From Escherichia coli (GTDB lineage Bacteria > Pseudomonadota > Gammaproteobacteria > Enterobacterales > Enterobacteriaceae), in assembly GCF_003334815.1 (NCBI RefSeq), contig NZ_QOWO01000004.1: 64,000 nt of DNA. The stretch is one strand, 5' to 3'. Position 1 is the first letter of the stretch. Each line of letters starts with the position of its first letter. A program made the position numbers and the translations under genes. The notes below the pieces were generated by a model. The model was not told where the DNA came from. It ran no database searches and saw nothing but the letters and a program-made list of their open reading frames with translations. Shown here piece by piece: positions 46,085 through 46,416 of the stretch.

Positions 46085-46416
46085 TTATTTTCCCCGGAAG
46101 CACATTCACTTCACAATTTGTTTACATCAATTTTAACACATCATCAACAATCCGTCTTTATACAGATCGTAAAGATTGATGCCTCGCCTGCGTGGCCTCT
46201 ATGGCTCTGATTTAAGTAATATCTGCGGGCGTGGTCACGTTTGCGGGGCTATATGTACCCGTTTCTGCGATCTAACTCAACCTTTTTAACTACAATGATG
46301 TGACTTTTTACATAAATTGATTTTACATAAAATAAACATATATCGGGGGAATGATAGATTTGTGGTTGACATGCATCAACAAAGGAAGCCTTTTAGCTTC
46401 CTCGTTGTGCAATAGA

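Follow-up and report, generated by a model that had tools for sequence, protein, structure and literature searches.

The direct repeat upstream of yejG in Escherichia coli is part of a published, conserved ArcA operator and overlaps a candidate CRP site

The genes yejG (CDS 45740-46084) and bcr (CDS 46417-47607) are both encoded on the minus strand of the window, the 64-kb (64,000 nucleotides) stretch of E. coli K-12-like DNA that was analysed here, and are separated by a gap of 332 bp that is 100% identical to that of MG1655. The GC content of this gap is 39%, with a value of 21% around a perfect 11-bp direct repeat. The sequence TTTTACATAAA is found exactly on the plus strand at 46306-46316 and at 46321-46331, with a 4-bp spacer, TTGA, and a distance of 15 bp start to start. 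The first-pass annotation, which had reported this repeat in a 333-bp AT-rich gap, was right on the repeat, on its two positions and spacing and on the AT-richness, and the CDS ends correct the length to 332 bp. On the yejG-sense (minus) strand the region across both copies reads TTTATGTAAAA-TCAA-TTTATGTAAAA, and we refer below to the copy at 46306..46316 as proximal and to the copy at 46321..46331 as distal with respect to the yejG promoters. No third exact copy of TTTTACATAAA was found elsewhere within the 64-kb window, and one copy with a single mismatch is present at 27256. The chance expectation was estimated by first-order Markov simulations of exact direct repeats of at least 11 nt at a spacing of 11-30 bp. 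In these simulations 0.35 such repeats were expected per 64 kb and 3 are seen, and 0.3% of the simulated 332-bp gaps with the same composition contained one, which gives a P value of about 0.003 for the gap. Given the many gaps per genome, the repeat is thus unusual but not overwhelmingly so, and its occurrence by chance is mildly unlikely. Two further close repeats are present in the 64-kb window.

Two transcription starts of yejG have been mapped by primer extension, at U00096.2 2,276,299 (P1) and 2,276,419 (P2) (Chung et al. 2013 Table 1, PMC3798280). Coordinates were converted by subtracting 2,230,175 from the U00096.2 position, an offset that was fixed on two published site sequences (first bases at 46339 and 46150) and that agrees with NC_000913.3 and with the CRP box positions of Shimada et al. 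The P1 start corresponds to 46124 and the P2 start to 46244, both on the minus strand. From the mapped starts and the verified offset, the repeat therefore spans -62 to -87 of P2, with the proximal copy at -62 to -72 and the distal copy at -77 to -87, and -182 to -207 of P1. The repeat falls in the upstream regulatory zone of P2, which answers the earlier proposal to compare it with mapped promoters. The P2 core promoter (46252..46280, minus strand) consists of a -35 hexamer TTGAGT (46280-46275), a 17-bp spacer and a -10 hexamer TACATA (46257-46252), these hexamers being read from the sequence to fit the primer-extension start, not defined by mutations, and it carries a GC-rich stretch after the -10. 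The spacer between -35 and -10 is 17 bp long in 81/81 species and the core sequence is nearly invariant. For P1, an extended -10, TGTTAAAAT, can be read from the sequence at 46138-46130. Across species, P2 and P1 are between 43 and 105 bp apart. A sigma-70 PET ChIP study resolved only two binding events, near window positions 46113 and 46257 (PMC3798280). Sigma-70 occupancy at yejG was 1462 under aerobic vs 56 under anaerobic conditions, and yejG expression showed a 4.0-fold differential between the two (Myers et al. 2013), which we take to mean higher expression under aerobic conditions, in agreement with the sigma-70 occupancy.

An A-tract, AAAAA (46283..46287, minus strand; -39 to -43 of P2), resembles a proximal UP subsite and is about 99% conserved. 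It is separate from the repeat, which had been suggested to be UP-element-like. A UP element is an A/T-rich site for alpha-CTD at -40 to -60, as at rrnB P1, and the repeat has in common with it AT-rich DNA upstream of the -35 but lies beyond that zone at both promoters; this identity was rejected.

On the bcr side of the gap, a terminator-like hairpin, GGAAGC-N6-GCTTCC followed by TTTGTTG, can be read from the minus strand at 46384..46401. A simple terminator scan did not call this hairpin because its T-run is short; hairpins with stems of differing sequence are found at the same position in other genera. The expectation that the gap must hold both the yejG promoter and the bcr terminator is thus borne out by the mapped P1 and P2 and by this hairpin. 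An FNR-type palindrome, TTGACATGCATCAA, is located at 46366..46379 with its centre at -128.5 of P2 and is a predicted site in Table S6 of Myers et al. It matches TTGAT-N4-ATCAA at 9/10 positions in E. coli and perfectly in many genera, and is kept in about 65/81 species with a freely varying N4. No FNR ChIP peak was reported on it, and it lies under a Fis ChIP signal (Myers et al. 2013). We observed also a Cra/GalR-type operator inside yejG.

The repeat could belong to another transcription unit, being part of the leader of a third yejG promoter or of an antisense promoter on the plus strand that runs into the bcr terminator. Both a consensus scan and the RpoD SELEX paper choose TTGATG-17-TATCAT (46379-46351, minus strand; predicted start near 46344) as a putative yejG promoter, and the hexamers of a putative plus-strand promoter, TTTACA-15-TAAAAT, can be read at 46307-46333. 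However, the sigma-70 PET ChIP resolved no event besides the two given above, the TTGATG coincides with one half of the conserved FNR-type palindrome and the TATCAT region is conserved at only 20-60%. The stretch that an antisense transcript would cover is variable and without Rfam match, and a 15-bp spacer is poor for sigma-70. We consider this explanation very improbable. The assignment of TTGATG-17-TATCAT as the main yejG promoter was likewise rejected, with its -35 within the FNR-type palindrome, its -10 unconserved and no third sigma-70 event. No RNA family was recognised when 45000-47500 was searched against Rfam with a permissive threshold, the sole hit being a chance match to an lncRNA (E = 0.2). 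A small ORF, suggested by the ATG-TAA present in both copies, was discarded as lying upstream of the mapped starts, and a 16-codon plus-strand ORF at 46253-46303 was discarded too, a stop codon breaking it in the species with GATCACA.

Conservation of the region in related genomes, one of the checks suggested with the first description of the repeat, was investigated with 80 loci, one per species, from other Enterobacteriaceae encoding YejG orthologues, with bcr upstream in nearly all of them. The intergenic regions were aligned with MAFFT and identity to E. coli was counted per column. The alignment showed a conserved block of about 90 bp between 46338 and 46249 (yejG-sense strand: TGTTTATTTTATGTAAAATCAATTTATGTAAAAAGTCACATCATTGTAGTTAAAAAGGTTGAGTTAGATCGCAGAAACGGGTACATATAG), with a column identity of 80-99% and sharp edges, both flanks being conserved at 10-60%. 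Both copies of the repeat are inside this block, which is near-invariant in the 80 other species, and within E. coli the 46 bp from 46296 to 46341 were matched exactly in 5197/5426 complete genomes. The two copies are identical to each other at 11/11 positions in 29 other species and at 10/11 in 24. The 8-nt distance between their two conserved cores is free of indels in 81/81 sequences. The cores are differently constrained: the distal 7-mer is ATGTAAA in about 80/81 species and never switches to GTGTAAA, and the proximal 7-mer is ATGTAAA in 43 species and GTGTAAA in about 27, with a variable 5' TTTA. As the block is conserved across species, the element is functional DNA, and this conservation is strong evidence for a function of the repeat, placed above the chance statistics as the main evidence. 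Being conserved and located upstream of a mapped promoter, the repeat withstands both conditions that its first description had set for a refutation. AT-rich spacers tend to contain more short repeats, and the window has three of this kind, as expected if the duplication were a functionless accident of AT-rich DNA. Against this stand the P value of about 0.003, the conservation over 80 species without indel between the copies and with diverging flanks, and the published ArcA binding data. The conservation profile effectively refutes this explanation, which we regard as hardly credible.

The distal copy is part of a canonical ArcA box. Its core ATGTAAA is the second direct repeat (DR2, TGTAAA) of the 18-bp box ATGTTTATTTTATGTAAA (46322..46339, minus strand), the first direct repeat of which (DR1, TGTTTA) lies 11 bp away centre to centre. 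This box belongs to the published full ArcA site yejG2, ATGTTTATTTTATGTAAAATCAATTTATGTA (46309..46339, minus strand; U00096.2 2276484-2276514), which covers -65 to -95 of P2. The box of yejG2 was reported to score 17.6 bits and its repeats 8, 8.5 and 1.4 bits, with DR2 placed at 2276500 (window 46325) (Park et al. 2013 Tables S1, S2 and S4, PMC3798270). The yejG2 ChIP-seq peak is weak, with a centre at 2276488 (window 46313) and a 1.9-fold enrichment in one of two replicates only (PMC3798270). A second ArcA site, yejG1 (46107..46150, minus strand; U00096.2 2276282-2276325), is composed of four direct repeats from -26 to +18 of P1 (Park et al. Tables S1, S4 and S6) and its ChIP-seq enrichment exceeded 8-fold (PMC3798270). 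We found a third ATGTAAA inside the yejG1 array, at 46128-46122. Expression of yejG rose 11.9-fold in the E. coli delta-arcA mutant and the gene was classed as directly repressed (Park et al., PMC3798270); in a Salmonella arcA mutant it rose 5.8-fold. An ArcA ChIP-chip region (2275985-2276585, 18.4-fold, called repression), too broad to split yejG2 from yejG1, covers the same promoters (Federowicz et al. 2014), and the motif TTACATAAAATAAAC was assigned there to 2276498-2276512, corresponding to window 46323-46337 (Federowicz et al. 2014 Table S5). The statement that no regulator is known for yejG thus does not hold, ArcA ChIP-seq, ChIP-chip, arcA-mutant expression and motif tables all covering the sequence, and the gap being also a CRP genomic-SELEX target.

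We built an 18-bp ArcA matrix from 114 boxes of Park Table S3, leaving out the yejG sites. With this matrix ATGTTTATTTTATGTAAA scored 17.5 bits, vs a training mean of 15.7 bits (family mean about 15.6), and only three of the 128,000 positions in the window scored higher, namely a box at 34059, named yeiQ1 in the Park table (PMC3798270), and the two yejG1 boxes (18.8 and 18.7 bits). Among species the box scores at least 15 bits in about 70/81, with differences at the tolerated positions 1 (A or T) and 7 (A or C), and it is 18 bp long with unchanged DR1-DR2 spacing in 80/81 sequences. The repeat is therefore part of an ArcA operator that had been published together with its regulator and the promoters. 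It belongs to the ArcA-operator family by the box, spacing and score determined here and by the occupancy and regulation taken from the literature. PhoP (TGTTTA-N5-TGTTTA), or another OmpR-family regulator that recognises repeats 11 bp apart, could act at the distal element instead of or besides ArcA. In TGTTTA-TTTTA-TGTAAA one half-site agrees fully with that of PhoP and the spacing is correct, and a Shigella phoPQ mutant showed increased yejG expression, 2.7-fold by array and 3.9-fold by qRT-PCR. However, the second half-site is mismatched at 2/6 positions, the Shigella effect may be indirect, and it is ArcA that has ChIP and strong expression data at yejG, so that we give PhoP little credence.

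Other proteins with half-sites of similar letters were compared with the repeat. The CpxR box and the tandem OmpR sites (TTTACA-type, every 10 bp) share with it GTAAA or TTTACA letters and a direct orientation, but a CpxR box is GTAAA-N5-GTAAA and the repeat is GTAAA-N10-GTAAA, 15 bp start to start. A TyrR box, TGTAAA-N6-TTTACA, is inverted, whereas the TGTAAA copies are direct and are followed 6 bp downstream by TTATGT or CATCAT. Compared by eye, the TyrR, CpxR, IHF and MarA-type consensus sequences fail on spacing or on core bases.

The proximal copy is placed differently with respect to ArcA. As a single direct repeat, the 7-mer ATGTAAA scores 8.6 bits, alike in both copies, but the proximal one is separated from DR2 by 15 bp and from DR1 by 26 bp. 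Additional repeats in known ArcA sites are found at 11 or 22 bp, a DR3 spaced by 12 bp was not footprinted, and the in-register DR3 of yejG2 has only 1.4 bits (Park et al., PMC3798270). No 18-mer containing the proximal copy exceeded 6 bits with our matrix. At 15 bp from the distal copy, the proximal copy is therefore outside the 11-bp register needed by ArcA dimers. The earlier suggestion of a paired factor-binding site thus stands as to a factor-binding region and fails as to an equivalent pair, given the 15-bp offset and the different constraint on the copies. ArcA alone might nevertheless use both of them, an ArcA-P dimer binding DR1-DR2 and an extra subunit or dimer occupying the proximal ATGTAAA despite its offset, so that the operator would reach further towards P2, with no part for CRP. 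The identity of the two 7-mers, the third ATGTAAA in the P1 array, and the published full site, which runs into the proximal copy, would fit such binding, and the ChIP peak centre is reported between the copies (window 46313). ArcA footprints may also reach into DNA in which no repeat can be recognised, an example being dctA (Park et al., PMC3798270), and an invariant AAAAAG next to the proximal core would suit the A-rich 3' part of an ArcA repeat. Against ArcA alone, besides the spacing rules, the proximal copy would face the opposite side of the helix, a partner repeat is missing 11 bp away in both directions, and the GTGTAAA found in about 27 species lowers its ArcA score while the distal copy is fixed. 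Use of both copies by ArcA alone would also leave an invariant GTCACA unexplained, and we consider it unlikely.

This GTCACA is about 99% conserved and adjoins the proximal copy, the core of which is joined to the invariant AAGTCACA. The proximal copy overlaps the left half of a CRP-like palindrome, TGTGACTTTTTACATA (46299..46314 in plus-strand reading), with the centre at 46306.5. A CRP matrix was built from 148 boxes of Table S3 of Shimada et al. The E. coli sequence TGTGACTTTTTACATA (TATGT-N6-TCACA) matches 8/10 consensus positions and scores 7.4 bits, at about the 20th percentile of the training set, a value equalled by about 1 position in 1000. The form found in other genera, TGTGACTTTTTACACA (TGTGT-N6-TCACA), matches 9/10 positions and scores 11.2 bits, compared with a training median of 11. 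With the proximal A-to-G change in about 27 species, the CRP score goes up and the ArcA score goes down. Members of the Klebsiella oxytoca group retain the ArcA box but have lost the palindrome in both its halves, which may reflect a single evolutionary event and is only suggestive, but would back the reading of the proximal copy as a CRP site. Class I CRP sites are centred near -61.5 (or -71.5, -82.5 and -92.5). By the published P2 start the palindrome centre is at -62.5, within 1 bp of the first of these positions, and its distance to the -35 is 18 bp in 71/81 species. The central AAAAAG of the palindrome is invariant as well, a sequence that CRP alone would not need. The yejG-bcr gap is, at low resolution, a genomic-SELEX target of CRP, with boxes predicted elsewhere in the gap, TGTGCAATAGATCACC (46406-46421) and TGCGATCTAACTCAAC (46266-46281) (Shimada et al.). 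With our CRP matrix these boxes scored 11.6 and 10.1 bits, respectively, above TGTGACTTTTTACATA. One study assigns yejG to Cra repression. Judged from the sequence and its conservation, the proximal copy with GTCACA is a candidate CRP site, a prediction that we hold to be quite possible although somewhat short of even.

Stimulation of P2 from upstream could also come from Fis, from IHF at the AATCAA spacer, or from intrinsically bent DNA. Fis sites stimulate growth-rate-controlled promoters from upstream. The core is 21% GC, P2 has the A-tract at -39 to -43 and the GC-rich stretch past the -10, the spacer AATCAA-N4-TGT is near to the IHF core WATCAA-N4-TTR, and a Fis ChIP-seq signal covers the adjacent FNR-type site (Myers et al.). 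However, this Fis signal is about 40-60 bp away and of low resolution, no part of the block is less conserved than the IHF-like spacer (columns at 50-80%), and the near-invariant TGT and GTCAC are unlike the degenerate signals of Fis or of bent DNA. We consider such an action improbable.

Returning to ArcA at the distal copy and a CRP-like site at the proximal copy, we propose a sequence of events at P2. When respiration is limited, ArcA-P binds the 18-bp box formed by the distal copy and the TGTTTA 11 bp upstream, and its binding to this box and to the stronger four-repeat array at P1 shuts yejG off under anaerobic conditions. The proximal copy with GTCACA would most likely be a site for cAMP-CRP at -62.5 of P2, in the position of a class I activator. 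ArcA-P at -65 to -95 would overlap the CRP-like palindrome by 6 bp, and the activator would be displaced and P2 repressed. Since the ArcA site overlaps the palindrome and is placed upstream of the region contacted by RNA polymerase, activator exclusion would be the simplest action of ArcA at P2. The full form of this proposal, in which the ArcA box and a class I CRP site interlock and ArcA-P represses P2 by displacing CRP and not by occluding the polymerase, is predicted from motif and position and is held tentatively, at roughly one part belief to two parts doubt. The broader view, a conserved P2 control module with ArcA on the distal copy and its box, a CRP-like proximal copy and ArcA anti-activation, appears probable to us, the use of CRP and the anti-activation being the parts that we infer. 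The literature shows the two starts, the ArcA ChIP and motif, the 11.9-fold derepression, the loss of sigma-70 without oxygen and the CRP SELEX in the gap, and the motif scores, the geometry and the conservation were established here. Looping of ArcA between yejG2 and yejG1 is unlikely as a conserved feature, because the distance from P2 to P1 varies among species, from 43 to 105 bp.

The site was compared with known systems. Like the ArcA multi-repeat operators of icdA, acs, astC, trxC and paaA (PMC3798270), among which yejG2 is listed, it combines an 18-bp box, made up of two TGTTA-type repeats at a distance of 11 bp, with repeat-like elements near by, and it is linked to the anaerobic repression of an aerobically expressed gene. 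Unlike those operators, yejG2 has its extra strong repeat at 15 bp, not at 11 or 22 bp. Promoter occlusion was inferred for most ArcA targets (Park et al., PMC3798270), and repressing ArcA sites mostly extend into the region contacted by sigma-70, whereas yejG2 spans -65 to -95 relative to its closest mapped promoter. The closest parallel to the arrangement proposed for P2, an activator site within an ArcA operator, is paaA, where a CRP site is embedded in the ArcA repeats and antagonism of activation was suggested (Park et al., PMC3798270). The CRP and ArcA footprints are experimental at paaA, whereas the CRP site of yejG is predicted. Comparison with lac P1, a class I promoter with CRP at -61.5, showed a similar layout, with a CRP-like palindrome of the TGTGA-N6-TCACA type about 62 bp upstream of the P2 start, one half of it perfect and the other imperfect, an A-tract located between this palindrome and a weak core promoter, and a conserved distance to the -35. 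The putative P2 site differs from that of lac P1 in its centre at -62.5, in the left half TATGT of E. coli and in that CRP dependence is predicted.

The ArcA site was already present in two genome-scale studies and the promoters had been mapped, and the repeat has little importance beyond annotation. The additions made here are small: the site is conserved with rigid spacing in about 80 enterobacterial species, and its second copy misfits the ArcA spacing rules and resembles a class I CRP site. If the proposal is true, the 15-bp offset would be conserved because two different proteins share the TGTAAA letters, and yejG P2 would show, within a short stretch, the kind of anti-activation by ArcA that has been proposed for paaA. 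The module is fixed across the Enterobacteriaceae and would then place the uncharacterised YejG under joint carbon and respiratory control. To know firmly that YejG is switched on aerobically, with cAMP-CRP as a possible activator, would give a modest hint at its function.

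The CRP-like palindrome that overlaps the proximal copy of the yejG repeat (46299-46314) was found to be decayed in both halves, reading CGTTT or CGCTC ... TCGCA, in the Klebsiella oxytoca group, in the region upstream of yejG at about positions 2290-2310 of each of the four aligned loci L030, L042, L043 and L047. The ArcA box (46322-46339 in E. coli), which has the core of the distal copy as its DR2 and lies 15 bp upstream of the decayed palindrome, is intact in all four loci. This loss of the palindrome with retention of the ArcA box suggests that the two copies are parts of separate functional units. 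A third conserved ATGTAAA was located at 46122-46128, exactly at the start of promoter P1, where it forms DR3 of the yejG1 ArcA array; the 12-mer at this site, TTTACATCAATT, shows a 92% match with TTTACATAAATT of the proximal copy.

Two other exact 11-nt close direct repeats were observed in the window. The first, TTTAAACATGT, occurs twice with an 18-bp period at 27211-27239, between the ORFs 26202-27143 and 27566-29257 of the psuK-fruA region, and its minus-strand reading, CACATGTTTAAA, is ArcA-repeat-like. The sole copy of the yejG repeat with one mismatch in the window, TTTTACGTAAA at 27256, is located 30 bp from it. The second, TCCGGCACGCT, occurs twice with a 16-bp period at 58621-58647, in GC-rich and apparently coding surroundings.

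On the bcr side, the terminator hairpin (46384-46401) was not called by a simple terminator scan. In the alignment of L002-L081, the 80 other Enterobacteriaceae loci, its place is constant across genera and its stem sequences are entirely different, as in GGGGGC...GCCCCC; such compensatory stem change is consistent with a real intrinsic terminator. Immediately downstream of it, an FNR-type palindrome, TTGACATGCATCAA, is present at 46366-46379. About 65 of the 81 species retain this palindrome, while its central N4 varies freely; Salmonella and Citrobacter are among those with a perfect version (TTGAT-N4-ATCAA). In 74 of the 81 it is separated from the ArcA box by 26-27 bp. Its conservation suggests that it is in use under some condition. 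Among the predicted FNR sites of Myers et al. it is classed as 'silent', without ChIP peak and beneath a Fis signal.

Within the yejG coding region, a LacI-family operator-like sequence, GCGGAATCGGTTCAAC, was observed at 45991-46006. It has been listed as a match to the GalR motif; an intragenic Cra ChIP-exo site has been reported in yejG, and one study placed the gene under Cra repression.

Constraint is not usual in promoter spacers. The core of the yejG promoter P2 (46249-46290) is nearly invariant among the 81 species, including the entire 17-bp spacer, inside which a GATC is found at 46269-46272. The CRP box predicted by Shimada, TGCGATCTAACTCAAC, corresponds to 46266-46281 within this core (centre -29.5), and weak sigma-32 ChIP-chip and RpoH SELEX signals have been reported at about 46277-46291. 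The P2 core DNA is probably read by something in addition to sigma-70.
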